Source: Rhynchopus sp. YZ270_cl-10
Lineage: Eukaryota
Reading direction: 5' to 3'
Assembly (NCBI GenBank): GCA_964035575.1
Contig: OZ037837.1
Span: forward strand, 930,001-994,000
Length of the DNA: 64,000 nucleotides
The translations under genes were made by a program, and so were the position numbers. The stretch's first letter is position 1; every line of letters starts with the position of its first letter. This document shows, piece by piece, positions 7,920 to 61,750 of this stretch. Below the pieces are notes generated by a model that made no database searches, had not been told where the DNA came from, and saw only the letters and a program-made list of their open reading frames with translations.

Positions 7920-8162
7920 CACGACGGGACCAGGGACAAGTGACAAGTGAAAATGACAAGTGCTTTAATTTTCCTTCCTTCAAAACTACACAACGCTTTT
8001 TGGTTTTTGGGAGACACACAAGGTGCCAGGTTATATGACATGCACGGAACCACCCTGCACCTGTTTGTCATATCGTTTCCCGTGCAATACATGAAGAAAC
8101 GTTTCGCACTCGAAACTAGGGTGACTTATTTGTCATTTCGCTTGTCACTGGGTCCCGTCGTG
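7920..8162. mobile_element. MITE with CAC...GTG termini (CMC/CACTA-like?)
   Basis: TIRs CACGACGGGACC...GGTCCCGTCGTG with subterminal TGACAA motifs and GA on both flanks. The interior recurs at ~56755-56911. Confidence 0.6.
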
Positions 8163-20694: not shown

Positions 20695-21443
20695 ACCCAG
20701 TACCCAGTACCCAGTACCCAGTACCCAGTACCCAGTACCCAGTACCCAGTACCCAGTACCCAGTACCCAGTACCCAGTACCCAGTACCCAGTACCCAGTA
20801 CCCAGTACCCAGTACCCAGTACCCAGTACCCAGTACCCAGTACCCAGTACCCAGTACCCAGTACCCAGTACCCAGTACCCAGTACCCAGTACCCAGTACC
20901 CAGTACCCAGTACCCAGTACCCAGTACCCAGTACCCAGTACCCAGTACCCAGTACCCAGTACCCAGTACCCAGTACCCAGTACCCAGTACCCAGTACCCA
21001 GTACCCAGTACCCAGTACCCAGTACCCAGTACCCAGTACCCAGTACCCAGTACCCAGTACCCAGTACCCAGTACCCAGTACCCAGTACCCAGTACCCAGT
21101 ACCCAGTACCCAGTACCCAGTACCCAGTACCCAGTACCCAGTACCCAGTACCCAGTACCCAGTACCCAGTACCCAGTACCCAGTACCCAGTACCCAGTAC
21201 CCAGTACCCAGTACCCAGTACCCAGTACCCAGTACCCAGTACCCAGTACCCAGTACCCAGTACCCAGTACCCAGTACCCAGTACCCAGTACCCAGTACCC
21301 AGTACCCAGTACCCAGTACCCAGTACCCAGTACCCAGTACCCAGTACCCAGTACCCAGTACCCAGTACCCAGTACCCAGTACCCAGTACCCAGTACCCAG
21401 TACCCAGTACCTAGTACCTAGTACCTAGTACCTAGTACCTAGT
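20695..21443. repeat. (ACCCAGT)n 7-bp satellite, ~107 copies, ending in ACCTAGT variants
   Basis: Perfect tandem array; the last ~5 units share a C>T variant. Confidence 0.98.
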
Positions 21444-21933
21444 GCCCACCAGTCCCCTAGTGCATTTTACCTGTCATGACCAGACCTGACGCTAACTTTT
21501 GGGTTTTTGGGAAATCGTGGGATGATGGTCGAATATGGGGGGGTCCGAGACGACAGTGGCTTGCGACGACCACTACCAGGTGTTCAGGTTGCTGCAACCA
21601 AACTATGTCATGGGTGGGGTGGGTTGCAAAGCTTGCGCCGCAGGCGCACGGTACGCTACTTTTATTCTTTCGACGTATCTTTTTCTCACTCCTCGTTGGG
21701 TTCTACGAGGTCCTACCGTCAAATTGTGGGGGTCACAACGCGCAGCAAAGTTCGCAGCTATGCAAACTGCCCCCACGTTTACTTTGCACTTTACCCTCAG
21801 TGGTCAAGTACTTACCATATATTACACACAAAACCTGAAAGGGTTAAATCCGGTGGTACCCATTTTCCTAGTACCCATTTTCGTTAATACCCATTTTTCA
21901 AAAGTGGGTACTAACGAAAATAAAAAGTGGGTA

Positions 21934-22627: not shown

Positions 22628-22701
22628 TATTAAAGAAAAGAAAAAATGGGTATTATCGAAAATATTTTGGGTACCTGGGTACTGGGTACTGGGTACCCAG
22701 G

Positions 22702-23156
22702 TACCCAGATACCCAGATACCCAGATACCCAGATACCCAGATACCCAGATACCCAGATACCCAGATACCCAGATACCCAGATACCCAGATACCCAGATAC
22801 CCAGATACCCAGATACCCAGATACCCAGATACCCAGATACCCAGATACCCAGATACCCAGATACCCAGATACCCAGATACCCAGATACCCAGATACCCAG
22901 ATACCCAGATACCCAGATACCCAGATACCCAGATACCCAGATACCCAGATACCCAGATACCCAGATACCCAGATACCCAGATACCCAGATACCCAGATAC
23001 CCAGATACCCAGATACCCAGATACCCAGATACCCAGATACCCAGATACCCAGATACCCAGATACCCAGATACCCAGATACCCAGATACCCAGATACCCAG
23101 ATACCCAGATACCCAGATACCCAGATACCCAGATACCCAGATACCCAGATACCCAG
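22702..23156. repeat. (TACCCAGA)n 8-bp satellite, ~56 copies
   Basis: Perfect tandem array. Confidence 0.98.
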
Positions 23157-24774: not shown

Positions 24775-26247
24775 CCCAGTACCCAGTACCCAGTACCCAG
24801 TACCCAGTACCCAGTACCCAGTACCCAGTACCCAGTACCCAGTACCCAGTACCCAGTACCCAGTACCCAGTACCCAGTACCCAGTACCCAGTACCCAGTA
24901 CCCAGTACCCAGTACCCAGTACCCAGTACCCAGTACCCAGTACCCAGTACCCAGTACCCAGTACCCAGTACCCAGTACCCAGTACCCAGTACCCAGTACC
25001 CAGTACCCAGTACCCAGTACCCAGTACCCAGTACCCAGTACCCAGTACCCAGTACCCAGTACCCAGTACCCAGTACCCAGTACCCAGTACCCAGTACCCA
25101 GTACCCAGTACCCAGTACCCAGTACCCAGTACCCAGTACCCAGTACCCAGTACCCAGTACCCAGTACCCAGTACCCAGTACCCAGTACCCAGTACCCAGT
25201 ACCCAGTACCCAGTACCCAGTACCCAGTACCCAGTACCCAGTACCCAGTACCCAGTACCCAGTACCCAGTACCCAGTACCCAGTACCCAGTACCCAGTAC
25301 CCAGTACCCAGTACCCAGTACCCAGTACCCAGTACCCAGTACCCAGTACCCAGTACCCAGTACCCAGTACCCAGTACCCAGTACCCAGTACCCAGTACCC
25401 AGTACCCAGTACCCAGTACCCAGTACCCAGTACCCAGTACCCAGTACCCAGTACCCAGTACCCAGTACCCAGTACCCAGTACCCAGTACCCAGTACCCAG
25501 TACCCAGTACCCAGTACCCAGTACCCAGTACCCAGTACCCAGTACCCAGTACCCAGTACCCAGTACCCAGTACCCAGTACCCAGTACCCAGTACCCAGTA
25601 CCCAGTACCCAGTACCCAGTACCCAGTACCCAGTACCCAGTACCCAGTACCCAGTACCCAGTACCCAGTACCCAGTACCCAGTACCCAGTACCCAGTACC
25701 CAGTACCCAGTACCCAGTACCCAGTACCCAGTACCCAGTACCCAGTACCCAGTACCCAGTACCCAGTACCCAGTACCCAGTACCCAGTACCCAGTACCCA
25801 GTACCCAGTACCCAGTACCCAGTACCCAGTACCCAGTACCCAGTACCCAGTACCCAGTACCCAGTACCCAGTACCCAGTACCCAGTACCCAGTACCCAGT
25901 ACCCAGTACCCAGTACCCAGTACCCAGTACCCAGTACCCAGTACCCAGTACCCAGTACCCAGTACCCAGTACCCAGTACCCAGTACCCAGTACCCAGTAC
26001 CCAGTACCCAGTACCCAGTACCCAGTACCCAGTACCCAGTACCCAGTACCCAGTACCCAGTACCCAGTACCCAGTACCCAGTACCCAGTACCCAGTACCC
26101 AGTACCCAGTACCCAGTACCCAGTACCCAGTACCCAGTACCCAGTACCCAGTACCCAGTACCCAGTACCCAGTACCCAGTACCCAGTACCCAGTACCCAG
26201 TACCCAGTACCCAGTACCCAGTACCCAGTACCCAGTACCCAGTACCC
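24775..26247. repeat. (CCCAGTA)n 7-bp satellite, ~210 copies
   Basis: Perfect tandem array with the same unit as 20695-21443. Confidence 0.98.
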
Positions 26248-26718
26248 AAAATAATTTCGATAATACCCATTTTTTCTTTTCTTTAATACCCACTTTTTAT
26301 TTTCGTTAGTACCCACTTTTGAAAATGGGTATTAACGAAAATGGGTACTAGGAAAATGGGTATTAAAGAGAAAAACCCAACCTGAAAATGGCTGTAAAAA
26401 CTGATACATGCATTTTAGGTCAAAAATACTCAGTTCTGAGCGCAAAGTGACCCCATCACAGCACGCAGAGGCTCCGGAGCACTGAAATATTTTTTTATTT
26501 TTTTTTATTTTTTGGGGTGAAAATTTCTGGGGGGAAATTTCTGGCCACAAAAAACCACCAAAAAAAAATACACAAAATAATTTTTGCACCCCCCTTAAAA
26601 TTAGGGGTAAATTGGGTACTTCTTGGGTCTTTCTAGGGTATACACCCTAGCCCTATACAGCCACACCATTAAATAATACCCTTTTTTTTGGGTTCAGCCA
26701 CACCAAGGTGTCGTTGAG

Positions 26719-30250: not shown

Positions 30251-30306
30251 ATCAGGGGTTCCGCTACCGTATAAGATTCAATTTGGTTGAGGGTCGAAGG
30301 TGTGGA

Positions 30307-31496
30307 AATAAACAACAAATGGTTCTTATACCAAAGTTGTTGTGGCGGCGTAAGTGTATAAAATAAACAACAAGAGGTTCTTATACCTAGTTGTTGTGGC
30401 GGCGTAAGTGTTGAAAATAAACAACAAGAGGTTCTTATACCTAGTTGTTGTAGCGGTGCATGTGTATAAAATAAACAACAAGAGGTTCTTATACCTAGTT
30501 GTTGTGGCGGCGTAAGTGTATAAAATAAACAACAAGAGGTTCTTATACCAAAGTTGTTGTGGCGGCGTAAGTGTTGAAAATAAACAACAAGAGGTTCTTA
30601 TACCAAAGTTGTTGTGGCGGCGTAAGTGTATAAAATAGACAACAAGAGGTTCTTATACCTAGTTGTTGTAGCGGCGTAAGTGTTGAAAATAAACAACAAG
30701 AGGTTCTTATACCAAAGTTGTTGTGGCGGCGTAAGTGTATAAAATAAACAACAAGAGGTTCTTATACCTAGTTGTTGTAGCGGCGTAAGTGTTGAAAATA
30801 AACAACAAGAGGTTCTTATACCTAGTTGTTGTAGCGGTGCATGTGTATAAAATAAACAACAAGAGGTTCTTATACCTAGTTGTTGTGGCGGCGTAAGTGT
30901 TGAAAATAAACAACAAGAGGTTCTTATACCTAGTTGTTGTAGCGGCGTAAGTGTTGAAAATAAACAACAAGAGGTTCTTATACCTAGTTGTTGTAGCGGT
31001 GCATGTGTATAAAATAAACAACAAGAGGTTCTTATACCTAGTTGTTGTGGCGGCGTAAGTGTTGAAAATAAACAACAAGAGGTTCTTATACCTAGTTGTT
31101 GTGGCGGCGTAGGTGTAGACAATAAACAACAAGAGGTTCTTATACCAAAGTTGTTGTGGCGGCGTAAGTGTATAAAATAAACAACAAGAGGTTCTTATAC
31201 CTAGTTGTTGTGGCGGCGTAAGTGTATAAAATAAACAACAAGAGGTTCTTATACCTAGTTGTTGTGGCGGCGTAAGTGTTGAAAATAAACAACAAGAGGT
31301 TCTTATACCTAGTTGTTGTGGCGGCGTAAGTGTATAAAATAAACAACAAGAGGTTCTTATACCAAAGTTGTTGTGGCGGCGTAAGTGTATAAAATAGACA
31401 ACAAGAGGTTCTTATACCTAGTTGTTGTGGCGGCGTAGGTGTAGAAAATAAACAACAAATGGTTCTTATGCCAAAGTTGTTGTGGCGGCGCAGGTG
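30307..31496. repeat. 54/55-bp minisatellite, ~22 copies with interspersed variants
   Basis: Unit AAATAAACAACAAGAGGTTCTTATACCTAGTTGTTGTGGCGGCGTAAGTG(TATA/TTGA); no unique spacers. Confidence 0.95.
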
Positions 31497-31563
31497 TCCT
31501 CGTACGACGGAGAAGCGTCATGACAGTGAGAATACCTCACTTGTTCACATGTTCTGTACTTCA

Positions 31564-32146: not shown

Positions 32147-35100
32147 TCACGCAGCACCATCCAAAAGAATCCGTCTTGCTAGTTCAGGCTCCACAGTGTC
32201 CCTCCCGGGGCAGCTGGATACGCGAGGAACTGTTGCAGTCGCACCGATGACTCTCTTCAGCCTCGTCTTCCCATCAATCGTGCCGTCTGCGTTGCAGATG
32301 CCCCATATGCGCACTGTGCTGTCGAGATAGCCGCAGATAACTTCACGCCCGTCAGGACTCACAGCAAGACTGCGCAATTTAGTAGACTGCTCAGCAATCA
32401 CTGCGACCTCCTTGCCAGTCGTGATGTCCCATACGTGCACGGTGCGGAAACTTCGACACGACACGACGTGAGCTCCATCAGGAGTCACTGCAACCCGTGA
32501 ACAATTCCGTGGTGTGGTGAGCACTTCCTTCCCGCTGGCCACCTCCCACACGTGGGTCCTCTGTTCGCAGCAGGACACCACATGCCGTCCGTTGGGTGTC
32601 AGCGCGATGCCCCAGACGCCAGCTTTGTGCCCATCAAACACCAGTGTCTCTTCCCCCGTGTGAAGCTTCCACATGCGCACAGCACGCTCCCCTGAGGAGC
32701 AGGACACAGCATGGCAGCCATCCGGGGTCACCGCCACACCCCTGACAGCCTCGGTGTGCCCTGCAAAGCGTGCAACCTCCTTGCCGTCGGCAATGCTCCA
32801 CACACTGACAGCTTTATCGAGCACAACATACAAGACCTGCACCCCATCCGGTGCCACTGCCACACAACGCTGGCCCTCCAGTGCACACACTTCTCCTCCC
32901 GTACGAACGTTCCACACACGCACGGTGCCATCTGCAGAGCAGGACACGACACGAGACGCATCTGGGCACAGAGCCACCTCATGCACAGTGTCTGTGTGCC
33001 CCGTGAACACGCGTGTCTGCTTGCCGGTGCACGGATCCCACATACGCAACGTGTGGTCCCCGCAGGATACGATGGTTCCGTCGGACGCCACTGCCACGCC
33101 GTTCACAGCACCGGAGTGTCGCTCTGGGCGCAGTGCCTCCTTCCCGGCAGATAGGCTCCACACACGCGCAGTGCTGTCGTCACCGCAGGACACAGCATGG
33201 CGGCCGTCTCGTGTCACTGCAACGCAGTTCGCAGAAGAAGTGTGCCCCTCCAAGCGCATGACCTCCTTCCCTGTGGATGTGCTCCACAGGTGCACAGTGC
33301 CGTTGCTCGAGCCTGCCACCACGTGTGCTGCATCAGGCGTCACTGCTACTGCGCACAGCACTGGGCCAGCCGGGAACGCCATCACTTCACTCCCGGACGA
33401 CAGACTCCACAGACATGCGGTTCCGTCTGTCGCACAAGAAACCATATGGTGCCCATCCAGCGTGACTGCCACTGAGAGCACCAGCACTCCTGTGCAGGAA
33501 TCCTTGCGACGGTACGATATGACTTCTTTCCCAGTCGCCAGATCCCATACACGCAGCGCCGGCCCTGAGCACGTCACAACTCGACTTCCATCTGGCGTGA
33601 TCGCAAGCCGGTGTGCCACTCCCTCGAGTCCAAGCACCTTCTGCTTCTTCCCTGTGGAAAGATTCCACACACGCACAGTGCTGTCTTGAGAGCACGAAAC
33701 AACTTTAGAACTGTCGGGAGTGACTGCCACATCGGTGACACGGCCACTGTGCCCTTTCAAGACACACGCTGCCTTCCCAGTACGGATAACCCACACACGA
33801 ATCGTTGTGTCCCACGAACAGGAAACTATGCGCGACCCATCCGGTGTCACTGCTACAGCAGATATGCACTTAGGGTGTGCTTTGAAGCCCAGGACCAGCT
33901 TCCCAGAAGACATGCTCCACACATGCAAGGTGCCGTCGTAAGTGGCTGTAATAACTTTAGTGCCGTCAGGTGTCACTGCTACACCTGCTACCCCAGCATC
34001 ATGACGTAGTGTGGGAAGTGGTGTGCCAAGGGAGCAGTCGGGCAGCAGCGTGCCACCCATGTCGCAGGTGTGGAACTCAGTGTGCTCCAGCCAGCAGTTC
34101 GAGAAGGAAGCGCCCGTCAGCGCCGTCTCCACAAACAGAGACCCGCGCAGGTCGCAGTTCGACACACGGATCCTCTTCAGGTCCTCACCGCTCACAGGGA
34201 TGCGTGCACGTGCCAGCAGTGCTGCTGCATTCGACCCTGCTGTCACAGCACCCTCACCTGCACTGCCACGTGTCGCCTTCACAGTCGCAAGCAGCTCTGT
34301 GCAGGCACGTTCGTACAGCACACTGTCTCCACACACCAGCGCCGCAAAGAACCCAAGCACACGCTGCGAGTCCTTGCTGAAGCTCCGCTGCACCAGCGTC
34401 CCCAGTGTCCCTGCTGGATCACGTGCAAGCCGCCGTGCTGCAAGGTGCTCCCCAAGCGACTTGTGCCGGAATGTGAACGCACTCCGCTCCTCGCCAAAGT
34501 CCTCAATCCGGAACGGCAGGCAGCGGAAGCACGCATCACGCACAGCCTCACACACACCGTGCTGCGAATCAAGAATCTGCGACGCCACACCCACAGTCCC
34601 CTGCCACTCGTTTGTCTCCAGCATCCTGCATGCAACAAGCTCCCCTGCACGCACCACATCCTCCAAAGACACATCTGCAACAGCAACTGCACCAGACGCC
34701 ATCTCCTTCTTCGTCCACGTCTCCAGGTAGGTCTCGTAGATCACCTCCTCAGAAGCCTTCCCGCTGCACTGTGCGTGGCACGCCATGTGCAACACAAATG
34801 GGTTCCGCAGCTGCACAAGTCCCTCAACGTCCTCCTCACGCACGAACACTGCTCGCACTGCTTCCTCTGATGTGCTGTCCTTCTTGTGTTCCTTCTCCCA
34901 GGCTGTGTTTGCACGCTCGATGTACGTTCTCGCATCCACCTCTGTGAACGGCTGCATGTACACAGCACGCACACTAGCTCCGCATACACCAGACGGGAAA
35001 ACATTGACGCTCTTCAGGTACTCACCACGCACAGTCACAACAACGCTGCAGTGTGCCTCCACCCACGGATGCCGGCACAGAAGGCCACCTTCAGCCACCA

Positions 35101-37195
35101 CAGCATCCACATCCTCCTGCGTCAGCCCAACCTCGTCCAGCGAGTCCAGCACCAGCACCACCTCGTACGTCTCCGCAAGGTACGCACGGTCCGCCTCCCG
35201 CAGCGCAAACGACTCCAGCACAAACCTGTCCAGTCCTCCCTTCTCAAGCAGGTGCTGCTTCACAGTTGGTAGAGCCACAAACACAGGGAAGTACGGCTTC
35301 GCATCTCCATCCTTGTTGCTCTCGCTGCTGTCCTTCTTCGCAGATGATGCAAGGTCGCTCAGAATTGCAATCGAAGCAGACGTCTTCCCACTCCCTCCTT
35401 CTCCGATCACACACAGCACACCACACGTCCCTTGTCTTTCTTCTCTAGCCTCCACATCAGGCTTGCCCTCTGTGTCCGCTTCTGCCTGTGTGCACACGGA
35501 AGACATCTGCTTCACACCTCCACGTGCATGAAGCCACATCCGCACCTCCTCCATCAGCGGACGTGCCTCCGACTCATCCACACGTGTGTCGTCCCCCACA
35601 CGCCCCTCCACGTACTGCGCAAGGTAGTCCTCGAAGAACGCGACTGTGTGTCCCATCACCTCCTGCAGCGCACCCACCTGCTCAGCTGCACTCGTCTCAC
35701 CCACACCAGAACACACCTCCTGCATCACAATCACGTCAAAGCGCAGCCCCATCATCCGCAGCAGCGTCGGCGAAAGCTTCCACTGCACCCGGTACTCGAT
35801 GTTCGCTGTGTACAGCAGCTCGTCCTCCGAAGCATACACAGACGAGAACTTCACGTCTGCAGCACCCTCCTTCGCCACCACCACAAAGAACGTGCCACCC
35901 TTCCCGTACATGAAGCTCCGAGCCACATCCCGCTTCAGTGTTGTCGACGTGAAGCAGTTCCACACAATGTGCGTCCCCAACGCGTACTTCGCAGACACGT
36001 TCACATTGATCCCACGGAACACAGTCCGCAGCTGCTTCCGACGGCTCCCAATCAGCCGGTCCAGACCACGGATCAGCGGCGCAAAGGTCGCAATCACGTG
36101 CAGCTGCGGAGGTGCAGGTGACAGCTCAAACACGTTCGGTGCTGTCTTCTCAGGTGTCCCCTTCCACTCCTTCACCGCAGGCAGCTGCCCCACAGCACGC
36201 ATCGCAGTGTTCATCGTCATGTACAGCGCAAGCGACTGTGACTCAGCAGCACTTCCGTGGTGGTCCAGCACAGCCCGCTCCGTCAGACGGATGTACCGAA
36301 GCCTCCCGTCAGTCCCTTTCGCAATCTGCGGTGTCCTGTGCTCGTCACACACAACATCCCCACCGCTGTCCAGCACATACTCCACGCAGTCGGAAGTGAA
36401 CAGGAACCCTGACAGCAGCAACTCAAACGGGTCGCGTGCCGCCATCCAGTCCTCCACCTCCACGTGCCCACCACTTGACTCTGCAGCCCCCCTCCGTCCT
36501 CTGATGTCCTCCAGCAGACGCTTGCACACCACACGGAACCCCGCCTCCATGTGCCGCACGTGTTCGTCTGTGTAGCCCAACGGCGGATCCACCTTTGGCA
36601 GACCACGCAGCCAGCACAGCAGGTCTTGACCTCCACTGCTGTTGTTGTTGTTGTCCTCCTTCTTCTGCAGCCACTCCACCTTCCGTCCATCTGTGTGCCG
36701 CAGTGCACCTGTGTCCCCGTCAAGATCGTCCTCTCCCAGCTGTCTGTCTGCAGTCGAGGTACTCGTGTCTTTCGCCGTGCCCATGTGGGGGTCAGTAAGA
36801 GGTACTGGCGTTGCATCTCCACCGCTCCGTTCCACCGTCTCACCTGTTGTTGTTGTTGTTGTCGCAACACCGTCAGTGAGGTACACCTGCACAGCATCCT
36901 CCACCTCACCAAGGATCTCTGCTGCGTGCACCCCCAGCTCCGCCTCAAGTCGCCCCCGCACATCCGCGTCCCTGTGCTGCAGTGCGTACCACAGCGGCAC
37001 CTTCCCGTCCCTGTCACGCACGTTCCCTGCACCGTTCTGCACAAGAAACCGCACTGCCTCCACATCCCCCGCAATCACAGCACTGTGCAGCATTGTCCTC
37101 CCGTCCACACTGTCCACTGCGTCCACGGGCCTCTCCTTCTCTGTGATTGCCTTTGCAATCTCGTCCTTTTCAGTCTTCGACGCTCCGGACCCCAT
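32147..37195 (-). CDS. NLR-like STAND protein 1: ankyrin - R-S-E ADP-ribosyltransferase - NACHT - pentapeptide repeat - 14 WD40 (~1682 aa)
   Basis: Start MGSGASK. ANK DGRTMLHSAVIAGDVEAVRFLVQNGA. ART VFRG...WNCFTSTT...SEDELL. Walker A GEGGSGKT, Walker B VLVLDSLDE, VVTVR, LRNPF, FTFRHKSLGEHLAA. Pentapeptide EDLKRIRVSNCDLRGSLF. 14 WD40 units counted. Confidence 0.92.
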   Translation of the reverse strand: MGSGASKTEKDEIAKAITEKERPVDAVDSVDGRTMLHSAVIAGDVEAVRFLVQNGAGNVRDRDGKVPLWYALQHRDADVRGRLEAELGVHAAEILGEVEDAVQVYLTDGVATTTTTTGETVERSGGDATPVPLTDPHMGTAKDTSTSTADRQLGEDDLDGDTGALRHTDGRKVEWLQKKEDNNNNSSGGQDLLCWLRGLPKVDPPLGYTDEHVRHMEAGFRVVCKRLLEDIRGRRGAAESSGGHVEVEDWMAARDPFELLLSGFLFTSDCVEYVLDSGGDVVCDEHRTPQIAKGTDGRLRYIRLTERAVLDHHGSAAESQSLALYMTMNTAMRAVGQLPAVKEWKGTPEKTAPNVFELSPAPPQLHVIATFAPLIRGLDRLIGSRRKQLRTVFRGINVNVSAKYALGTHIVWNCFTSTTLKRDVARSFMYGKGGTFFVVVAKEGAADVKFSSVYASEDELLYTANIEYRVQWKLSPTLLRMMGLRFDVIVMQEVCSGVGETSAAEQVGALQEVMGHTVAFFEDYLAQYVEGRVGDDTRVDESEARPLMEEVRMWLHARGGVKQMSSVCTQAEADTEGKPDVEAREERQGTCGVLCVIGEGGSGKTSASIAILSDLASSAKKDSSESNKDGDAKPYFPVFVALPTVKQHLLEKGGLDRFVLESFALREADRAYLAETYEVVLVLDSLDEVGLTQEDVDAVVAEGGLLCRHPWVEAHCSVVVTVRGEYLKSVNVFPSGVCGASVRAVYMQPFTEVDARTYIERANTAWEKEHKKDSTSEEAVRAVFVREEDVEGLVQLRNPFVLHMACHAQCSGKASEEVIYETYLETWTKKEMASGAVAVADVSLEDVVRAGELVACRMLETNEWQGTVGVASQILDSQHGVCEAVRDACFRCLPFRIEDFGEERSAFTFRHKSLGEHLAARRLARDPAGTLGTLVQRSFSKDSQRVLGFFAALVCGDSVLYERACTELLATVKATRGSAGEGAVTAGSNAAALLARARIPVSGEDLKRIRVSNCDLRGSLFVETALTGASFSNCWLEHTEFHTCDMGGTLLPDCSLGTPLPTLRHDAGVAGVAVTPDGTKVITATYDGTLHVWSMSSGKLVLGFKAHPKCISAVAVTPDGSRIVSCSWDTTIRVWVIRTGKAACVLKGHSGRVTDVAVTPDSSKVVSCSQDSTVRVWNLSTGKKQKVLGLEGVAHRLAITPDGSRVVTCSGPALRVWDLATGKEVISYRRKDSCTGVLVLSVAVTLDGHHMVSCATDGTACLWSLSSGSEVMAFPAGPVLCAVAVTPDAAHVVAGSSNGTVHLWSTSTGKEVMRLEGHTSSANCVAVTRDGRHAVSCGDDSTARVWSLSAGKEALRPERHSGAVNGVAVASDGTIVSCGDHTLRMWDPCTGKQTRVFTGHTDTVHEVALCPDASRVVSCSADGTVRVWNVRTGGEVCALEGQRCVAVAPDGVQVLYVVLDKAVSVWSIADGKEVARFAGHTEAVRGVAVTPDGCHAVSCSSGERAVRMWKLHTGEETLVFDGHKAGVWGIALTPNGRHVVSCCEQRTHVWEVASGKEVLTTPRNCSRVAVTPDGAHVVSCRSFRTVHVWDITTGKEVAVIAEQSTKLRSLAVSPDGREVICGYLDSTVRIWGICNADGTIDGKTRLKRVIGATATVPRVSSCPGRDTVEPELARRILLDGAA

Positions 37196-38930
37196 CTTCC
37201 TGATGTGTACCTTGTTTGTTTGTTCACAGGTTGGTGTGCTGTCCCTGTTTGTGTGCTGTGATGTGTTCTGGGCAGTCTTGCTGTGTCCAGCACCCAAGCA
37301 GAGTCCTGCCTCCACACACAACTCTGCACACTGTTCCCACTCACCCCACCCCACTGACAGCGACCACACAGTACCACCACAACAATACAGTACCTCCCAT
37401 AGGACACTCTCCGCTGTCTCCACCCACCCCACCCCAGCAAGAACGCCAAAGGTGCTCTCGTGCTGCAACCACAGACAAGCTGAGGTGCCAGAAAAATGCA
37501 CGAAAACTGCGTCTCCTCTGCCTCTGTCTTCTCTCTATGCAACGCAAACACCTGGTCGTCGACCGACCCAGAGCTGGACCTGCAAGCATCCTTTGTCTAA
37601 AGAAACACCACAGACGCTTTCATCACGACCCCAAGAGAGAGTGGGGTGGGCATACACACAGAGAGGTGGGGATGTGGACAGTGGGTGGGGTCATTCGACG
37701 AATCGACACTATATAAACCCGACTGCGCAGTGCCAATACCAATGACAGCAACAGAGTCATGGTTAATATACTAGATGAGGGGGTAACCCGGTGTGGTGCA
37801 AGAGACAACAAACAGTTAGGGGGGGGACTCTGGGAGAGAGGTGGGGTGGCTGTATTCCCTCACATTCGTGCGGGACGGGGTGCTCCATCGTATTTTCCAA
37901 AAACGTACACCTGGGGACTCTGGGAGAGAGGTCCTTTTGTATTGCTCTTGAAAGGTTTAGGTGTATTAGCACTGCACTGAAGCAGCGCGATATAGAAGTA
38001 CGCAATGTCTGTTTACTCCACAACGCCTGCAAGAATGGAGCCTTTCCTCAACAGACCACATCTCATCCTCAATATGGTTTTACTGTGTTTTCAGCGTTTG
38101 ACAACATAATGAAAAACACCGTCCGTCTTTTGTTTAGTTGGTACGCTACCCACATCCTACGCACTGACAGCCAGGGGGCTTTTCTGGGGTAAGTTTAGCA
38201 TTTTGTTCATATAACAAAATCCTTTTCCACCCCCAAGTCGCACAGGAAGAAAAGTTTGGCAAAGACGAAGCGAAGGCTCGCGTACTTCATCACCAAAATA
38301 GAATCTGACTATTGACTTCCGGATATGACAGATGAGTAAAAAGATTTTGTTTTGCCTATAGACTACTATCACTAGATAGCAACCACGATTTTTTCTTCAG
38401 TAAATGGAAGCAGTACTAGAACAGAAGGAGTGTAAAAAGAAAAGAAAGAAAAAAACCAAACAACTTTTTTTTCCGTTTGTCGCTCTGCAAAGTTGTTGTG
38501 TTTTTTCCTTCGCAAAGTTCTGGTATGCAAGAGACAACAAACAGATACAAGGAGAGGAGCTCTTTTGCTTTGTTTTTTTTTCAAAACTTTGTTATAGTGT
38601 GGACACCCGAGGATGAGCGCCACCATGTTTTCCTTTTGAACTTGGCCACCATCCCTTTGTTCACAACTTCTCCAAGTGGTACGACTCTTTTGCGGCAGGC
38701 AACCGTATGAAGTGTCATTTCCACTGGGCGGTAGAAGGGCGGGCATTTACGTTCTTTTTCCAGTGTTCGTTTTGAAGGGGATGTGGGAGAGTTTCTGCAG
38801 CCCTGGCCCTGTTCAAAGAGGCCCTCCGTCCGTGAACTGAAAACAGAGAGATGTCTCAAAACATCCCAAAAAAAACTGCAAAAAAAAAGAAAAAGTTTAT
38901 AATTAGGCTAGTTGACGTCACGGACATTCG

Positions 38931-39150
38931 GGTATGGGAGGGTATGGGAGGATTTGGGAGGGTATGGGACAGTATGGGACGGTATGGGACAGTATGGGAC
39001 TGTATGGGACAGTATGGGACAGTATGGGACAGTATGGGACAGTGTGGGAGGATTTGGGAGGGTATGGGACAGTATGGGAGTGGTATGGGAGGGTATGGGA
39101 GGGTATGGGCGGGTATGGGAGTGGTATGGGAGGATTTTTGGAGGTTTGGG
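38931..39150. repeat. 10-bp GGGACAGTAT/GGGAGGGTAT degenerate array
   Basis: Seen directly. Confidence 0.9.
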
Positions 39151-39717
39151 AGTGGTTTGGGGGTCGTGCGTGCACTTAGGGTAGCTCGACTTTTTTTTCG
39201 TTTCCCGCTCGCTGACCCTGAAAAAAAAATGTGCGCGCGCGCAAAAAAAAAGTTTTTCCTGAAAAAAAGTTGACAAAAAAGTTGTGGGAACAGGGTGATC
39301 CTGTGGGTTTTTTATATAAAATCGCCTCAGGGGCCCCAAAAAACGGGTGACCCAAAACACAGTTTTTTGGCATTTCCGGAATCCGTCCAGAAAGTGGTGG
39401 GGTCGATGTCGAAAATTGGACAATTTTTTGACCACTTAAATTTTTGAAAATATGAGCCCAGTCACTAATAGCTGGGGCCCATTTTCGGCCAAAAAATGCT
39501 GCTGAAAAAAAATTTCAGGTGAAAATTTTTCACCCCAAGACATACCGCGATTGGCATTTCCGGAATCTGTCCGCGCTGTGGTGGGGTCAATTTGCCGTCG
39601 TCCAGCTGCAAATTCACAAATTATGGCCTTTCCGTATACCTCAAACCCAGACCGGCCCGGTTTGCAGTTCTCGTGTACAATTCGCACGCAAAAGAGAGCA
39701 ACTCCCACACCGATTAG

Positions 39718-39921
39718 GGGGACGGTACGGGACGGTATGGGACGGTATGGGACAGTATGGGACGGTATGGGACAGTGTGGGAGGGTATGGGAGTGGTATG
39801 GGAGGTACGGGAGGGTATGGGACGGTATGGGACAGTATGGGAGGGTACGGGAGGGTATGGGAGGGTATGGGACGGTATGGGGGGATTTGGGAGCGTTCGA
39901 GGGCGGTACGGGATGGTACGG
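39718..39921. repeat. Second 10-bp GGGAC(A/G)GTAT array, same orientation
   Basis: Seen directly. Confidence 0.9.
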
Positions 39922-40441
39922 AACAGGATTTCCCAGAAAATTCCTAAACCGACCCGTGGCGTCAACTAGCCTATTATAAGATGATCCTAAGCCTCTCGTG
40001 CTTAGTCACCTTAAATAATGAATACCACCAAAATTCCCAGTGTGCCATCATGTAAAAAGCCAATAAAAGGCCATCGTATTCCCACTCCAACGTTACGCGC
40101 AATATGATCACATGGCACATAGAAAGATAAAAGATTTGAACTAAAAACTGACCAAGATACGAAGATCTAAGTCTCGGGAGCAAAGTGATACAAGAATAAA
40201 GAGCGTGGGGATCAAAGAAGCAAAAAAAAGCAGAAAAAAAAGCGAGAAAAAAAACAGAAAAAAAATACATCGACACTGAGCTGACCACAACCCTTCCGCA
40301 AGTCATGAAACAAAGTTGCATTAGTAGGAAGTCATACAAATCCTTCCTTTTGTGGGAAAGTGCAAATTCAAAAATGAATACTAAACATGCAGAAATCAAA
40401 CAAGTTGTTGCACAGCTAGCCTCTCGAAAGAGGCACGTACC

Positions 40442-41653
40442 TCACATGCAGACACAATCGCGTTTGCTCTTCTTCTTGAGGCCAAGGCTGTCCACGGCAC
40501 TGCTCGATCCGGTGATGTTGATGCTGCAGTTACGTAAGTCGCAATAGTTAAGTCCTCCTCGCCCGATATGCGTCACACTCGCCCACCCAGACCAGTCCAG
40601 TGTTCGCAACGACCTGCAGTGGGTGACGAAGTCGTCGCCAATGTGGGTGAGATTATTCCACCCAGAAAAGTTGAGTTTTTTCAGTGCGTTGCAGCCGAAG
40701 AGGAAGCGGTTGCCTATGCGCGTGACATCCTTCCACGTGGAGAGGTCCAACTCGGTCAATGCTCGGCAGCTGAAGAGGAAGTCAGCTCCAACGTGTGTCA
40801 CGTTGTGCCACCCAGATAAGTCCAGTGTCGTTAATGCGCTGCACTCGTAGAGGAAGTAGTCTGCAATGTGCGTCACATTGCTCCACCCAGAGAAGTCCAG
40901 TGCTGTCAACGAACTGCAGTTGCGGAGGAAGTGGTTGCCGAACTGCGTCACATTGTTCCACCCAGCAATGTCAAGTGTTTGCAATCCGCTGCAGTTGTAG
41001 AGAAACGAGTTCTGGATGTGCGTCACATTGTTCCACCCAGACAAGTCAAGCCCGGTCAACGCACGGCAGCTGTAGAGGAAGGCAAACGCAATGTGCGTCA
41101 CATTGCTCCACCCAGACAAGTCAAGGGTTCGCAAAGCGCTGCAGCGCAAGAGGAAGTAATCCCCGGTGTGCGTCACATTGCTCCACCCAGATAGGTCAAC
41201 AGTGTGCAATAAACTGCAGTCGTGGAGGAAGTTGTCGCGTATTGCAGTCACAGCTAACACACCACTGAGATCCAGTTCTTCGAACGTGCTGCCCCCTAAG
41301 GTGTTAGGGGGGATCTCAGTAACAACTTCCGCCTGAAGAAACAAGTGAAGCAGCTTGGGATCTGCAAGACCTTCGAACCTCTCTGGCGTCAGGATCTCAC
41401 CCAAGTCACGAAGAGCTGCAATGGCGTCGTCCTTCTGCGACTTCGTCTTCGTCAGCACAACTGTGTCCCCAGCACTCAGCTGCGTCGTGTCGTCTCCTTC
41501 TGCCATCACCTTCCCGCCAAAGCTCACGTCAAAGCCGTCTTCGCACAACGCTGCTGCAGACGCTACCTTCCGCCGTATGTCCGCAGTTGTATCATCCACA
41601 TCCACCTCGATTGTGTACTTCTCTCCGTCAAAGCTCTCCGCACATATTTCCAT
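40442..41653 (-). CDS. UBL + 24-aa LRR protein with C-terminal polybasic CaaX motif (~403 aa)
   Basis: UBL-like MEICAESFDGEKYTIEVDVDDTT...; ~11 LxxLDLSGWxNVTHIxxxFLxxC repeats; ends KKKSKRDCVCM*. Confidence 0.88.
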   Translation of the reverse strand: MEICAESFDGEKYTIEVDVDDTTADIRRKVASAAALCEDGFDVSFGGKVMAEGDDTTQLSAGDTVVLTKTKSQKDDAIAALRDLGEILTPERFEGLADPKLLHLFLQAEVVTEIPPNTLGGSTFEELDLSGVLAVTAIRDNFLHDCSLLHTVDLSGWSNVTHTGDYFLLRCSALRTLDLSGWSNVTHIAFAFLYSCRALTGLDLSGWNNVTHIQNSFLYNCSGLQTLDIAGWNNVTQFGNHFLRNCSSLTALDFSGWSNVTHIADYFLYECSALTTLDLSGWHNVTHVGADFLFSCRALTELDLSTWKDVTRIGNRFLFGCNALKKLNFSGWNNLTHIGDDFVTHCRSLRTLDWSGWASVTHIGRGGLNYCDLRNCSINITGSSSAVDSLGLKKKSKRDCVCM

Positions 41654-42145
41654 GGCTTTGTACCTCTCTATTTTGTGCAGGTGTTTTGGGTGGGGCAGGA
41701 ACAAACAACAACAGAATTCGGTTTGGGTACCTACTGACTTAGTTGCTTTGTTTTCCCACAAGACAGCCAAATCAAGGAGAACTTCGTACGTAAAGGGGGG
41801 TGTGGTGTGGTGTGCAAGAGACAACAATAGTGTACAGATGTGGAAGTGGCAGTGCGTCTCACGCTCCCTAACTCACGTGGTCAACACGAACTAACATAAA
41901 CATCCACAAAACGAATAGAACACATGTGTAATCGTAGCACATCTTGGAAAAGATGTGAACATGAACAGACAGCACACGTGGTGCACTGTCGGTGTAACAC
42001 CTGGACCAGAAGCGTCTTCTGTCCTCGCACAACGCACCCGCAGTGGCATGAGGGCACCACCGCACGAGGCAGTGTCAACACCATTCGTGCTCTGCATGCG
42101 TCTTGGAAAAGAGGCAAACACAAAGAGCAAGTACGAACAGTGCGC

Positions 42146-45100
42146 TCACTCCTTGCTGTCCAAAAGAATCCGTCTCGCAAGTTCAGGTTCCACAGCATCA
42201 GCATTGCGACAGCCTAATGCACGAGGAACTGTTGGTGGGACACCGATCACTCTCTTCAGCCGCAACCCAGCAATCGTGCCGTCTTCCCCAGTGCAGATGC
42301 TCCACACACGCACGGTCTTGTCATCGCAACTACACATTACTTCGCGTCCCTCGGGGCTCACAGCAATACTGATGAAAGAAGCACCATGCCCTTGGATCGC
42401 TGCCACCTGCTCACCAGTGGTCATGCTCCACACACGAATAGTACCGGCACAGTGCCCAACGCAGGACACCACGTGAGCTCCATCAGGTGTCACTGCCGCT
42501 CCCAACACTGGAGCAGGATGCTCCAAGGTGAAGACCTCCTTCCCGCTGCCAACATCCCACACACGCACAGTTTTGTCCTTCGAGCGTGAAACAACACGGC
42601 CTCCATCGGGAGTCACAGCCACACCTTCGGCATAAGATGTGTGTCCTTCGAACACCATCGTCTCTTCTCCAGTGTGAAGTTTCCACATGCGTACGGTCTT
42701 GTCATCGGAGCACGACACCACATGCACTCCATCAGGAGTCACCGCCACTCCTTTGACGACGTCTGTGTGCCCTGTAAATACTGCCACTTCTTTGCCGGTC
42801 AGCATGCTCCACACACGGATAGTGTCATCGTGCATACACCAAAAGCCCGTCACCACGTGAGATGCATCGGGAGACACTGCCACGCGTCTCAGACCTGGCG
42901 ACTCCTTCAAAAAAACCGCAAACTCACTAGAATCTGAGCGTAAAGTCACTTCTTTCCCCGTCGCAACGTTCCGCACATGCACACTGCTTTCGACGTCATC
43001 GGAAGAGCAATGAACCTCATGAGATCCATCTGGGAACACTGTCACAGCAATACGATTCTTTGTGTCTGGTTCAAACACCTGTGTCTGCCTGCCGGTGGAT
43101 GCGTTCCACATGTGTATCCTCTTCTCACTGCGCGAAATGATAGATCCATCAGGGGTCGCTCCCACAGAATCCACTGAGGCTGGGTGTGCTTCGAAACCTG
43201 GTGTCTCCTTCCCGGTCGTGATGTTCCACACTCGGACCGTTTGTTCGTAGCTAGCGCATGAAACCACGTGGCGTCCATCTGGTGACACTGCCACTGCCTC
43301 TACACTATCGGTATGCCCTTGCAACGTCGTCACCTCCTTCCCGGTCGAAATGCTCCAAACGTGCACCATGCCGCTGCTGGATCCAGCCACTACGTGACAT
43401 CCATCGGGAGTGACTGCCACGCAAATCAAACAGTCGTCTCCATGTAACACCGTCACCTCTGCCCCTGTTGAGAGGTTCCAGAGATGTGCGTCCTTCTCAT
43501 AGCACGAAACAACATGGCATCCGTCGGGGGTGGCTGCCAGCTGGTTCGAAGACTCCACACAGCAAGGCCACTGCCTCTCCTGCTTCCCCGTGGCCAGATC
43601 CCATACGCACAGCTCCTCCTTAGAGCATGTCACAATGTTACTTCCGTCCATCGTGACAACCATGCTGCGAGCGCCAGGCGACGTTATTGCCAGCACTTCC
43701 TTCCCCGTCGAGAGATCCCACACACGCACGCCATCTCCAAACGAAGAGGAAACAACTTTAGAACTGTCGGGAGTGACTGCCACTTTGAGCACGTGGTGCT
43801 CGTGGCCTTCCAAGACAAACAAAGTCTCCCCAGTGTGCAAATTCCACACCCGCACAGCTTCATCCTGAGAGCAGGAAACTATGCGGGTTCCGTCAGGTGT
43901 CGCTGCCACTCCCCATACGCCAGCCGAATGTCCTTCCAAGACCAATGCTTCTTTCCCAGAGGACATGCTCCACACACGTATGCTTCCATCAGAGCAACCT
44001 GTCACCATTTGCGTGACATCGGGTGTTATGGTCACGCAATACGCTGTAACATACAGTGTGGGAAGTGGTGTGCCAAGGGAGCAGTCAGGCAGCAGCGTGC
44101 CACCCATGTCGCAGGTGTGGAACTCAGTGTGCTCCAGCCAGCAGTTCGAGAAGGAAGCGCCCGTCAGCGCCGTCTCCACAAACAGAGACCCGCGCAGGTC
44201 GCAGTTCGACACACGGATGCCCTTCAGGTCCTCCCCACTCACAGGGATGCGTGCACGTGCCAGCAGTGCTGCTGCATTCGACCCTGCTGTCACAGCACCC
44301 TCACCTGCACTGCCACGTGTCGCCTTCACAGTCGCAAGTAGCTCTGTGCAGGCACGTTCGTACAGCACACTGTCTCCACACACCAGCGCCGCAAAGAACC
44401 CAAGCACACGCTGCGAGTCCTTGCTGAAGCTCCGCTGCACCAGCGTCCCCAGTGTCCCTGCTGGATCACGTGCAAGCCGCCGTGCTGCAAGGTGTTCCCC
44501 AAGCGACTTGTGCCGGAACGTGAACGCACTCCGCTCCTCCCCAAAGTCCTCAATCCGGAACGGCAGGCAGCGGAAGCACGCATCACGCACAGACTCACAT
44601 ACACCGTGCTGCGAATCAAGAATCTGCGACGCCACACCCACAGTCCCCTGCCACTCGTTTGTCTCCAGCATCCTGCATGCAACAAGCTCCCCTGCACGCA
44701 CCACATCCTCCAAAGACACATCTACAACAGCAACTGCGCCAGATGCCATCTCCTTCTTCGTCCACGTCTCCAGGTAGGTCTCGTAGATCACCTCCTCAGA
44801 AGCCTTCCCGCTGCACTGTGCGTGGCACGCCATGTGCAACACAAACGGGTTCCGCAGCTGCACAAGTCCCTCAACGTCCTCCTCACGCACGAAGACTGCT
44901 CGCACTGCTTCCTCTGATGTGCCGTCCTTCTTGTGTTCCTTCTCCCAGGCTGTGTTTGCACGCTCGATGTACGTTCTCGCATCCACCTCTGTGAACGGCT
45001 GCATGTACACAGCACGCACACTAGCTCCGCATACACCAGACGGGAAAACATTGACGCTCTTCAGGTACTCACCACGCACAGTCACAACAACGCTGCAGTG

Positions 45101-57753: not shown

Positions 57754-59331
57754 TCACTCGCGTAAGTGGTCTGGTAGCCTGCAGAGTACAGCATTGCTGC
57801 ACTTGTCCTTTCCATGCAAGGTCTTCAACGCTGGGCACCAGTTGAGGAAGGAGCCACCAATGGTAGTGACAGTTTGCAACCCACTTAGGTCAACTGCCAC
57901 CAACGATGTGCACCCGAAGATGAAAGATTCACCAATCATGATGACTCCTTGCAATCCACTTAGATCAACTGTCAACAATGATGTGCACCCGTAGAGGAAG
58001 TAGTCCCCAACCATGGTGACAGCGTGCAATCCACTCAGGTCTAGTTTCGTCAAAGCTGTGCAGCCACAAAGTACCTGGTTCCCAATCACAGTCACAGCAG
58101 ACGCATGACTGAGATCAATGCACGTCACTGCAGTACTCGAGGCGAAGCAGTCTGGAATCGCAGTCGCAGCTCCTGCCTGCAGGAGCAAGCAAGCCACCTT
58201 CGGATCAGTCACCTGATTTAACCTTTCTGATGTAAGTGTTGTCTCACCCAACGCACGAAGTGCTGCAATGGCATCCTGCTTCCTCCTCTGTGTATTGACT
58301 TGCGTTAGAACAACCCTGTGACCCCTCAACTGCACCACATTCTCTCCTGCTACAATCGCTGAACTTCCGAAACTCATGTCGAAGCAGCCTTCAAGCAACC
58401 CCACTGCAGACGCCACCTTCCGACGCAAGTCCCTGCCCGTGTCATCCACACTCACCTCAATCTCGTGTTCCACTCCATCCAACCCCTGCACAAGGACAGG
58501 CACAACAAGCGCAGACAACTGGGCAAGGGCGTCGTGCACGTTCGAAACAGGCAGCTTCAAGGAAAACGTTGCGTGTGGGTGTGCAGCACCCACAAGGCGG
58601 TGGCGGTCTCCACTCGCCGCCATGCTGTTGATGCTCCGCACAACGGCCTGCGACTCTGTGACCGCACGCAGCACCTGGTCGTCCCCAAGCTGGCACACCG
58701 CCTCGCACTCAGCAATCATGTGTCCTGCCTTCGCAACAAACGTCTTCAGCGCACACACCTCCCCTTCACGACTGAGTGCCTGTGTGAGGAAGCTCCGTGC
58801 CACCACCTCCTCGCACACGACTTCACTGCGCGACACATCCTCACGCATCACGAGGTGCTCGACGTGTGTCTGCAGGAGAAGGTCTTTGTATCTGCCCTCT
58901 GTGGGTGGGAGTGCCTCAAGCACACGGCACTTCTCCTCTGCAGCAGTCCGCTGTGTTGTCAGGTCTGACACGTGTGAGTGGAGGATGTCGCGCTCGTATT
59001 TCATGTAGTCCGTGATGACAACTGTCTTGTGTCCCGTATGTTCAAAGTGAGCACAGCACATGCAGATCAACGCGTCTCCACACGCAGGGTCTACACAGAC
59101 GACGCACCGCACTTGGTCGGGGTGTTGTGTACACTTCAACGACGCCCCGTACGCAGTCACAGAAGCGCGATGTGCCTCACGGTCACGTGGCCTTGGGTGG
59201 CAAGCGTCATAGCACGCAGGTGTGTCGCAGAAGAACAGATCCACGCACATCCCGCACTGCAGCTGTGCAGGCACGCCACAGTTCTCACAGCTCGGCATCT
59301 GTGGTGCGGTGGGCTGCGTGTCAGACCCCAT
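57754..59331 (-). CDS. B-box/B-box/coiled-coil - UBL - LRR protein (RING-less TRIM-like, ~525 aa)
   Basis: Zinc fingers CENC..CGMC..FFCD..C..CH..H and CTQH..CVVC..ICMCC..HTGH; helical region; UBL VLVQGLDGVEHEIEVSVDDTG...; 24-aa LRRs. Confidence 0.82.
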   Translation of the reverse strand: MGSDTQPTAPQMPSCENCGVPAQLQCGMCVDLFFCDTPACYDACHPRPRDREAHRASVTAYGASLKCTQHPDQVRCVVCVDPACGDALICMCCAHFEHTGHKTVVITDYMKYERDILHSHVSDLTTQRTAAEEKCRVLEALPPTEGRYKDLLLQTHVEHLVMREDVSRSEVVCEEVVARSFLTQALSREGEVCALKTFVAKAGHMIAECEAVCQLGDDQVLRAVTESQAVVRSINSMAASGDRHRLVGAAHPHATFSLKLPVSNVHDALAQLSALVVPVLVQGLDGVEHEIEVSVDDTGRDLRRKVASAVGLLEGCFDMSFGSSAIVAGENVVQLRGHRVVLTQVNTQRRKQDAIAALRALGETTLTSERLNQVTDPKVACLLLQAGAATAIPDCFASSTAVTCIDLSHASAVTVIGNQVLCGCTALTKLDLSGLHAVTMVGDYFLYGCTSLLTVDLSGLQGVIMIGESFIFGCTSLVAVDLSGLQTVTTIGGSFLNWCPALKTLHGKDKCSNAVLCRLPDHLRE

Positions 59332-59602
59332 GTTGTGTGTTTCGAAGAGGTGGGAGGGTGCAGGGGTGTCTGGAAGGGGTTGGGTGGGTGGCATGGGATG
59401 GAAACAGAGTGTGCGTTCAAGACTGCAGCACACAGGAAAGGTGAGTGAGAGGCTGGTGATCGTTATCAAGCTTCTGCACCACCCCGTTGCGGGTATGGGT
59501 GGAGCACAGTGCACACGGCGAGTTAGTATCACAATATGAGGGATGGAGAGGAAAACGTTTGTGGAGTGTAGTGGGTAGGGTTGGGCCGTTCTCGCATTAA
59601 TT

Positions 59603-60773: not shown

Positions 60774-61750
60774 TATAATGGACACACTTCTGATCCTAAG
60801 AAGGACCCCACCCTCACCTTCCCTCACCCAAACCCCAAAGAAATGCTCTGTTGTTCACAACACCCAGCCAACCCTCTCAAATCCTCCCAACTGTTTCGTA
60901 TGACTCATCCCAACAAACCCCACCTCACTCTGTCACCACCTCCCAAAAATAATAAAGAAGCACACCTCAGCACAGTGCAGAGCAGCCGTCGTGCAGCTGA
61001 CCACACAGTGCGAGGGGTGAAGATGCAACAACAACAACTGCTGCAAAAGTGAACGCTTTCGTGCTTCTCACTGGCGTAAGTGGTCTGGTAGCACTCTGAG
61101 TACAGCATTGCTGCACTTGTCTTTTCCATGCAAGGTCTTCAACGCTGGGCACCCGTAGATGTGTAGGAAGGAGTGTCCAACCGTGGTGACAGCTCGCAAT
61201 CCACATACATCAACTGTCGACAATAATTTGCACCCCCAGAGGAACCCGTCCCCAATCCAGGTGACAGCTTGTAATGCACTCATGTCAACTGTGGACAATG
61301 ATGTGCACTCCACGAGGAACGAGTCCCCAATCGTGGTGACAGCTTGCAAGCCACTCAAATCAACTGTCGACAATGCTGTGCACCCGTAGAGGAACCCGCT
61401 CCCAATACTGGTGACAGCTTGTAATCCACTCAGGTCGAGTTTCGTCAAAGATGTGCAGTAACGAAGGAAGTCGTTCCCGATCACAGTCACAGCAGACGGA
61501 TGACTGAGATCAATGCACGTCACTGCAGTTCTCGATGCGAAGCAGTCTGGAATCGCAGTCGCAACTCCTGCCTGCAGGAGCAAGCAAGCCACCTTCGGAT
61601 CAGTCACCTGCTTCAACCTTTTTGCTGTAAGTGTTGTCTCACCCAATGCACCAAGTGCTGCAATAGCGTCATTCTTCGTCCTCTGTGTGTTGGTCTGCGC
61701 TACAACAACCCTGTGACCCCTCAGCTGCACCACGTCCTCTCCTTCTGCAA

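Follow-up and report, generated by a model that had tools for sequence, protein, structure and literature searches.

The 64,000-nucleotide stretch analyzed here (the window) covers positions 930,001 to 994,000 of contig OZ037837.1 (assembly GCA_964035575.1) of the euglenozoan protist Rhynchopus sp. YZ270_cl-10. It carries two genes on the minus strand, each encoding an ADP-ribosyltransferase (ART) domain in front of a NACHT-type NTPase, followed by pentapeptide repeats and a long WD40 region (table 1). The initial annotation of this DNA described two intact genes of about 1680 amino acids (aa), and both were recovered as single open frames with zero internal stops, at 1682 and 1678 aa. The VFRG, FTSTT and SEDE motifs were found in both genes where that annotation had placed them, and the WD40 regions comprise 14 blades apiece, predicted to fold as two seven-bladed propellers. 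The claimed ankyrin part held up in one respect, since the Pfam matches are significant, but it consists of merely one or two repeats. In Pfam searches with segments of gene 1, ART (PF01129) scored 28.1 bits (cut-off 22.3) and Pentapeptide (PF00805) 24.9 bits (cut-off 20.2). Both proteins start with MGSGAS, a predicted N-myristoylation (Myr) motif that the initial annotation did not mention, and 58 of the 60 close members of the family have a start of this type.

Table 1. Features of the window, with positions counted from its first nucleotide; genes 1 and 2 are the ART-NACHT genes.
Feature	Position	Strand	Remark
Gene 1, complete coding sequence, 1682 aa	32147..37195	minus	Myr-Ank-ART-NACHT-pentapeptide-WD40x14
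Gene 1 MGSGAS N-terminus	37178..37195	minus	predicted N-myristoylation motif
Gene 1 short ankyrin stretch	36962..37180	minus	1-2 repeats; Pfam Ank_2 2.7e-9, Ank_4 E 8.6e-11
Gene 1 ART domain	35717..36628	minus	helical lobe and catalytic core
Gene 1 NACHT module	34250..35659	minus	Walker A 35404, Walker B 35152, sensor-1 VTVR 35038, RNPF 34807, FRH 34471
Gene 1 pentapeptide repeats	34028..34183	minus	Pfam PF00805; strand pattern of the model agrees
Gene 1 WD40 region	32300..34009	minus	14 blades, hypervariable top face
Gene 2, complete coding sequence, 1678 aa	42146..47182	minus	architecture as gene 1
Gene 2 MGSGAS N-terminus and short ankyrin stretch	46949..47182	minus	alignment to gene 1
Gene 2 ART domain	45764..46675	minus	VFRG 46069, FTSTT 46000, SEDE 45877
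Gene 2 NACHT module	44297..45706	minus	
Gene 2 pentapeptide repeats	44075..44230	minus	alignment to gene 1
Gene 2 WD40 region	42300..44056	minus	14 blades; 52% identity to the gene 1 region
VFRG	gene 1 36022-36011 / gene 2 46069-46058	minus	
FTSTT	gene 1 35953-35939 / gene 2 46000-45986	minus	
SEDE	gene 1 35830-35819 / gene 2 45877-45866	minus	
Walker A GEGGSGKT	gene 1 35404 / gene 2 45451	minus	
Walker B VLDSLDE	gene 1 35152 / gene 2 45199	minus	longer form VLVLDSLDE
Sharp identity boundary	34005..34012 (gene 2: 44056)		DNA identity from ~98% to ~60%
2531-aa ART protein	10658-18253	minus	CYRG, FSSTS, EEE at 15652-15434; Pfam ART E 1.2e-4
Ubiquitin-like and BspA-type LRR gene family	40442-41653, 8404-9381, 53790-54932, 57754-59400, 61068-61760	minus	
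Divergent beta-propeller protein	50765-51877	minus	ubiquitin-like N-terminus by eye
Second copy of beta-propeller gene	48686-49759	minus	open frame without ubiquitin-like start
RNase H-like (RVT_3) frame	62180-63523	minus	probably retroelement remnant
Satellites and 54-base tandem repeat	20695-21448, 22694-23156, 24775-26248, 30306-31497		
Proline-rich membrane protein gene	4201-7964	minus	SPPTP repeat; apparently split over two frames

A search of the Protein Data Bank (PDB) with the single ART sequence gave only a weak match to HopU1 (E 0.89), and the assignment was resolved by profile and fold searches. With the ART alignment as query, the best PDB profile match was Vis (9.4e-15), and ART2.2, HopU1, a Tre1-type toxin, SpvB, VsdC and ExoT/S were also matched. 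The AlphaFold2 model of the domain, with a mean predicted local distance difference test score (pLDDT) of 86.6, superposed on HopU1 with a VIA Z of 15.1 (root-mean-square deviation (rmsd) 3.8, 207 aligned). Fold Z scores were 14.9 for ART2.2, 13.4 for ExoS, 12.8 for Vis, 11.6 for SpvB and 10.2 for C2-I, and Foldseek agreed. Heat-labile toxin (LT, 3.8) and pertussis toxin (4.6) lay far below HopU1, and the closest folds were thus not those of the cholera, heat-labile and pertussis toxins. Because of these profile and fold matches, the domain is placed in the arginine-type ExE branch of the R-S-E ARTs, not close to cholera toxin. The cholera/C2 class named in the initial annotation is therefore correct in the broad R-S-E sense, but the nearest folds are HopU1, ART2.2, Tre1 and ExoS. 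Similarly, the ART segment it proposed (35780-36250) lies within the domain, but the real domain is about 300 aa long and includes a helical N-lobe (approximately 36628-35717).

The R, the S-T-S/T and the catalytic E characteristic of R-S-E (ARTC) enzymes were all placed in the ART fold. Across 36 aligned relatives R213 (of VFRG) and S236 (of STT) were invariant, and E278 (the last E of SEDE) was kept in at least 90%. In the 60 close members other than the two window genes, VFRG and FTSTT were present in every protein and EDE in 59. Among 95 more distant ART and NTPase proteins, R-S-ExE was retained by 75, and the first E of ExE by 79, with Q in its place in nine. The first E of this motif is linked to arginine transfer. 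The full R/S-T-T/E-x-E triad is thus supported by motifs, by conservation and by the matched fold, and by modeled fold and motif the domain is an arginine-type R-S-ExE ADP-ribosyltransferase whose catalysis is predicted. A second R-S-E ART was observed elsewhere in the window, in a 2531-aa protein in which the profiles used here detected no NTPase or WD40; among the analyzed proteins its best match was a Euglena ART-NACHT member, and the remainder of the protein has no assigned domain.

The Pfam NACHT family (PF05729) scored 17.7 bits in gene 1, below its cut-off of 26.7, and a relative (P0102) cleared the cut-off at 26.9 bits. Because the Pfam score is sub-threshold, the NACHT call rests on motifs and on the fold match. 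Walker A and Walker B were conserved in 30 aligned relatives, where R211 was invariant and P287 and H399 were kept in at least 90%; these three residues correspond to the sensor-1 arginine, the HD1 proline and the winged-helix histidine. Both Walker motifs were also present in all 60 close members. The NTPase model (pLDDT 88.2) matched NOD2 (Z 18.0, rmsd 7.1, 410 aligned) and NLRP3 (Z 18.0, rmsd 4.4, 353 aligned) ahead of the NB-ARC proteins NRC1 (Z 13.0) and Apaf-1 and Dark (Z 8.9-9.1, with Apaf-1 at 8.9), and NLRC4 was the first Foldseek hit (E 2.6e-11). A profile search with this part was dominated by WD40 matches, and a complex prediction of two copies with ATP, run with no alignment, scored 0.00, which counts neither way on binding. 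According to the model and the motifs, the NTPase is a NACHT, nearer in fold to NACHT than to NB-ARC proteins, in line with the initial annotation.

The two genes belong to a large and closely related family, present in this organism or its close kin. Of 76 matches, 62 were close members, with identities of 81–100% across the region searched, apart from a single member at 74%. Their contigs have 20 different lengths; on the assumption that contigs of equal length are the same contig and that all derive from one assembly, 27 members lie on one contig and four on the contig of the window. For alignment statistics 57 sequences were kept, after short, start-less, doubled and distant ones had been dropped. 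Median pairwise identity was 96.8% for the ART, 94.7% for the NACHT and 94.5% for the Myr-Ank N-terminal segment, compared with 77.8% and 71.4% for the two WD halves. WD40 positions R1-2, R1 and D-1 mediate binding (PMC3419727), and at these top-face positions variability amounted to 2.75 bits, compared with 0.49 at bottom loops (38 and 112 columns, which are not independent). The contrast was unchanged with two other reference rows. The top face of the propellers is the focus of variation in the family. In pairs with about 94% framework identity (102 of 741 pairs, 48 sequences), 27% of top-face residues were shared, where neutral change would leave roughly 78%, an estimate that derives from a single calibration on the window pair. 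These sequence comparisons indicate an expanded family with a diversified predicted ligand surface, a trait of receptors resembling the nucleotide-binding, leucine-rich repeat (NLR) proteins. Three variants were seen among the relatives, namely P0006 (2932 aa, with about twice the WD40 content), P0069 (WD40 placed ahead of ART-NACHT) and P0080 (without detectable ART).

The window pair itself is a mosaic. Over the 1042 codons of the core, synonymous (dS) and nonsynonymous (dN) distances between genes 1 and 2 were 0.038 and 0.009, and over the 569 codons of the WD region they were 1.13 and 0.395. The break in identity falls at the first WD blade (34009 and 44056). The two cores are mutual nearest neighbors (98.5% identity, compared with at most 94% to others), whereas the WD regions are only about 50–52% alike, and the nearest WD region to that of gene 2 is found in another member (74.5%). 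This pattern suggests either gene conversion of the core or exchange of the sensor after duplication. Members apparently sharing a contig were more alike in both core (96.9 compared with 94.2%) and WD region (75.6 compared with 69.0%). Assembled contigs from two studies matched the WD region of gene 1 with 0 differences (over 1719 bases in one), and the junction between core and WD region was bridged by an exact 271-base contig, from a run that is possibly the source sample; this support covers gene 1, and gene 2 rests on the assembly.

More distant relatives were drawn from a search of 1.84 billion representatives, from which the best 150 of 220 matches were used. Of the 154 more distant proteins examined, 77 are at least 1000 aa long, and in 71 of these the ART immediately precedes the NTPase; because the query contained both domains, this count is biased. 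Among 31 relatives scanned with Pfam, the C-terminal part was WD40, LRR or TPR in many and had no assigned family in others, and RCC1, Ank or a nuclease/phosphatase preceded the ART in some and nothing in others. In some relatives (P0080, P0158, P0168) there were no recognizable ART motifs, or no ART. Source names were found for 13 of 30 relatives looked up: Diplonema papillatum, Lacrimia lanifica (3), an 'Hpha_' transcript (read as Hemistasia), Namystynia karyoxenos (2), Flectonema neradi, Papus ankaliazontas, Apiculatamorpha spiralis (2), Euglena gracilis and Pigoraptor chileana. Since 12 of the 13 derive from transcriptome-type sets, the relatives are transcribed. The order ART before NACHT was therefore found in diplonemids, prokinetoplastids and E. 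gracilis, and the survey across eukaryotes proposed in the initial annotation showed that it recurs in Euglenozoa with WD40, LRR and TPR sensors. The D. papillatum member (KAJ9461234.1) is annotated merely as a WD-repeat protein.

In a quick tree of 146 columns, which had many open forks and was relied on solely for the branch of the window ART, this ART grouped with the Lacrimia and Hpha_ proteins (Shimodaira-Hasegawa-like approximate likelihood ratio 98), a position that makes a diplonemid the most likely host. The Pigoraptor match (P0093) was considered as a non-euglenozoan member and rejected, because it nests among euglenozoan sequences; P. chileana is a predator grown on kinetoplastid prey. 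An uncharacterized rotifer cluster of 68 members in the ESM Atlas (NACHT 100%, TIR_2 81%, ART 79%; score 0.87, a lead only) suggests that the ART-NACHT pairing may extend beyond Euglenozoa; compared by domain content, it has NACHT and ART in common with the window genes and differs in TIR_2. No close relative turned up in collections of metagenomes or of viral and prokaryotic genomes, but such scans are insensitive to distant relatives and a bacterial or viral ART-NACHT may still exist. The ART-NACHT core of the window had no match in PADLOC or NCBIfam.

The order effector, NTPase and repeat sensor is that of NLR-like receptors, and several known systems share it. Podospora HET-E and HET-D (fungal HNWD/NWD) are likewise multigene effector-NACHT-WD40 proteins with variation on the top face, and positive selection on that same WD40 face is reported for them (PMC1805685). 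They differ in their effector, a HET domain, in place of which the window genes have Ank and ART, and the window genes have in addition a Myr-Ank end and a pentapeptide linker. Moreover, the Podospora WD repeats are homogenized, up to 100% alike (PMC1805685), whereas here uniformity lies in the core; blade-to-blade framework identity within one gene averaged 0.49–0.51 with a maximum of 0.71, unlike the concerted evolution of HNWD. In TeTIR/NIR-NACHT-WD40 proteins (TEP1, NWD1, NWD2) an NAD+-using enzyme lies directly upstream of NACHT, with WD40 or TPR behind (10.64898/2026.09.21.753143). These are the closest functional precedent, but their enzyme has a TIR-like NADase fold where the window genes have an ART fold, and they occur in few copies (five in human), compared with dozens of diversifying copies here.

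The NLR-related bNACHT and the Avs proteins, which are bacterial and act against phages, also combine an enzymatic effector, an NTPase of the STAND (signal transduction ATPases with numerous domains) class and a repeat sensor, including pentapeptide and beta-propeller sensors; the term 'ADP-ribosyl' is absent from the main text of the preprint describing them (10.1101/2022.07.19.500537). In APAF-1 and Dark, similarly, the STAND NTPase precedes a WD40 region that is long enough for two propellers, but theirs is an NB-ARC, with the lower fold scores given above. APAF-1 and Dark are single-copy and have a CARD adaptor. The arginine-type ARTs HopU1, ART2.2, Tre1, ExoS and Vis (fold Z 12.8–15.1 to the window ART) and SpvB share the helical N-lobe fold and R-S-ExE. 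HopU1/ART2.2-type ARTs act as toxins that are secreted or injected, or as enzymes on the cell surface, whereas the window ART is embedded in a predicted cytosolic STAND protein.

The initial annotation knew of no characterized example of this architecture, and no description of ART-NACHT receptors was found in the open full-text literature, which includes few subscription papers; a review of ARTs by Aravind may list it. The string 'ADP-ribos' is absent from the main text of two surveys of fungal NLRs (PMC9815663, PMC4986451), and NACHT, WD40, NLR and ADP-ribosyl from that of the D. papillatum genome paper (PMC10161547). ARTs are named among cell-death effectors generally (PMC8195603) and in toxin-antitoxin systems (PMC7159879), with no ART-NACHT fusion in the relevant parts of these papers, and an LRR-ART-like protein described in PMC7955679 is unrelated. 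Thus, the architecture is well supported as NLR-like and of a known kind, the ART effector class was not found described, and the function is one that we infer.

Taken together, these results suggest, with a probability of roughly 0.6, that the two genes encode NLR-like intracellular receptors for non-self in a euglenozoan protist, with an ART effector switched by ligand. By analogy with NLR biology the resting protein would be ADP-bound and closed, and its myristoyl group would probably tether it to a membrane. A ligand may bind the top faces of both propellers, upon which nucleotide exchange would open the NACHT and lead to oligomerization; the released or clustered ART would then transfer ADP-ribose from NAD+ to arginine in a host or invader protein, and the outcome could be growth arrest, cell death or disablement of the invader. 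The sequence patterns further suggest that rapid change of top-face residues creates new specificities, and that duplication and gene conversion hold the core uniform. The large family, conserved core and hypervariable predicted ligand face support the ligand-gated immune receptor proposed in the initial annotation, and fit poorly with a housekeeping family.

Several points weigh against this interpretation. That the receptors are gated by a ligand, that the enzyme is active and that the role is immune are all predictions, and a variable sensor implies a changing ligand, not a pathogen ligand. Evidence for positive selection on the top face is indirect: in the WD blades of the window pair, the proportions of nonsynonymous (pN) and synonymous (pS) differences were 0.65 and 0.84 at the top face and 0.19 and 0.51 in the framework, and this DNA pair is saturated. 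The single calibration behind the neutral expectation, the sub-threshold Pfam score of the NACHT and the query bias in the count of ART before NTPase belong here as well. A myristoylation-type start was present in just 8 of 71 long distant ART and NTPase proteins, so membrane tethering is not general. Finally, the comparisons did not demonstrate that cores and sensors are shuffled across the whole family. Distances in the core rise with those in the WD region (Spearman about 0.65), and 0–1 of 10 strong core splits recurred in WD trees; two halves of the core, used as a control, shared 2 of 11 and 0 of 11 splits, and because the control failed too, the tree test is uninformative.

Five other explanations were considered. 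The same receptor logic could hold with an ART that acts chiefly as an NAD+ glycohydrolase, causing NAD+ depletion or an ADP-ribose signal in the manner of TIR and TeTIR effectors. STAND proteins, those with TeTIR-NACHT-WD40 included, are known to use effectors that cleave NAD+ (10.64898/2026.09.21.753143). Some ART2.2-type enzymes are mainly NADases, and the nine relatives with Q at the first E would be compatible with such activity. This explanation is nevertheless unlikely, as that E is kept in most distant relatives and in nearly all close members, and the nearest folds are mostly transferases. It is likewise improbable, and second in rank, that the receptors sense non-self other than pathogens (prey, endosymbionts or conspecific genotypes), with ADP-ribosylation as a reversible signal and not a means of killing. 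Diversification of the sensor is compatible with any changing biotic ligand, and the fungal HET-E and HET-D, with the same variable face, serve allorecognition (PMC1805685). Diplonemids harbor bacterial endosymbionts. Saturation at some three positions in each blade, across dozens of copies, would fit an arms race better than steady signaling.

There is little to favor an ART that is a regulator acting by self-modification, or a bait for pathogen inhibitors, with the signal passing through the Myr-Ank end or a partner. The conserved, separate Myr-Ank segment and the relatives lacking ART motifs or the entire ART would agree with such a role. However, no part of the protein is more conserved than the ART, whereas baits would usually be expected to vary, and the place of the ART immediately in front of the NTPase is fixed while what precedes the ART differs. 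Offensive toxins delivered to prey or host cells, with the WD40 region selecting the target, are very improbable: injected bacterial effectors are among the nearest solved ART folds, but the proteins have a myristoylation-type start and no signal peptide evident by eye, the architecture is typical of cytosolic STAND receptors, and free-living Euglena has a member. Least probable of all is an assembly artefact or neutral amplification behind the near-identical cores and high copy number, for although none of the contigs listed covers a whole gene, the WD region and junction of gene 1 are matched exactly, the cores differ by about 50 substitutions (dN below dS) and an in-frame indel, and transcriptome sets from other species contain full-length relatives.

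Other features of the window are given at the end of table 1. A family of ubiquitin-like and BspA-type LRR genes may represent another set of variable receptors; one of these genes sits between genes 1 and 2, and one encodes an N-terminal part rich in Cys and His. The near-perfect satellites (7-base x108 and x211, 8-base x58) are accompanied by a 54-base tandem repeat (x22) that adjoins gene 1 downstream. The SPPTP-repeat membrane protein has a discoidin-like N-terminus by eye.

Little is settled about the means by which protists sense viruses and bacteria, and the ART-NACHT family is a concrete and testable candidate, of which members are carried by E. gracilis and by D. papillatum, a genetically tractable species. 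If NLR-like receptors with an ART effector are indeed what these genes encode, ADP-ribosyltransferases would join TIR, CARD, coiled-coil, HET, nuclease and sirtuin domains as NLR effectors, a toxin-type enzyme would have been domesticated into a ligand-gated host weapon, and cell-autonomous immunity would exist within a single-celled eukaryote. Whether Euglenozoa (diplonemids, free-living kinetoplastids and euglenids) possess an old, undescribed NLR system with a fixed arginine-type ART effector and interchangeable WD40, LRR or TPR sensors, with a repertoire of at least 60 receptors here and the first protein-ADP-ribosylating NLR, is in our estimation evenly balanced. In joining a uniform core to divergent propellers, the family inverts the pattern of fungal HET-E, and would represent a second route to a receptor repertoire.

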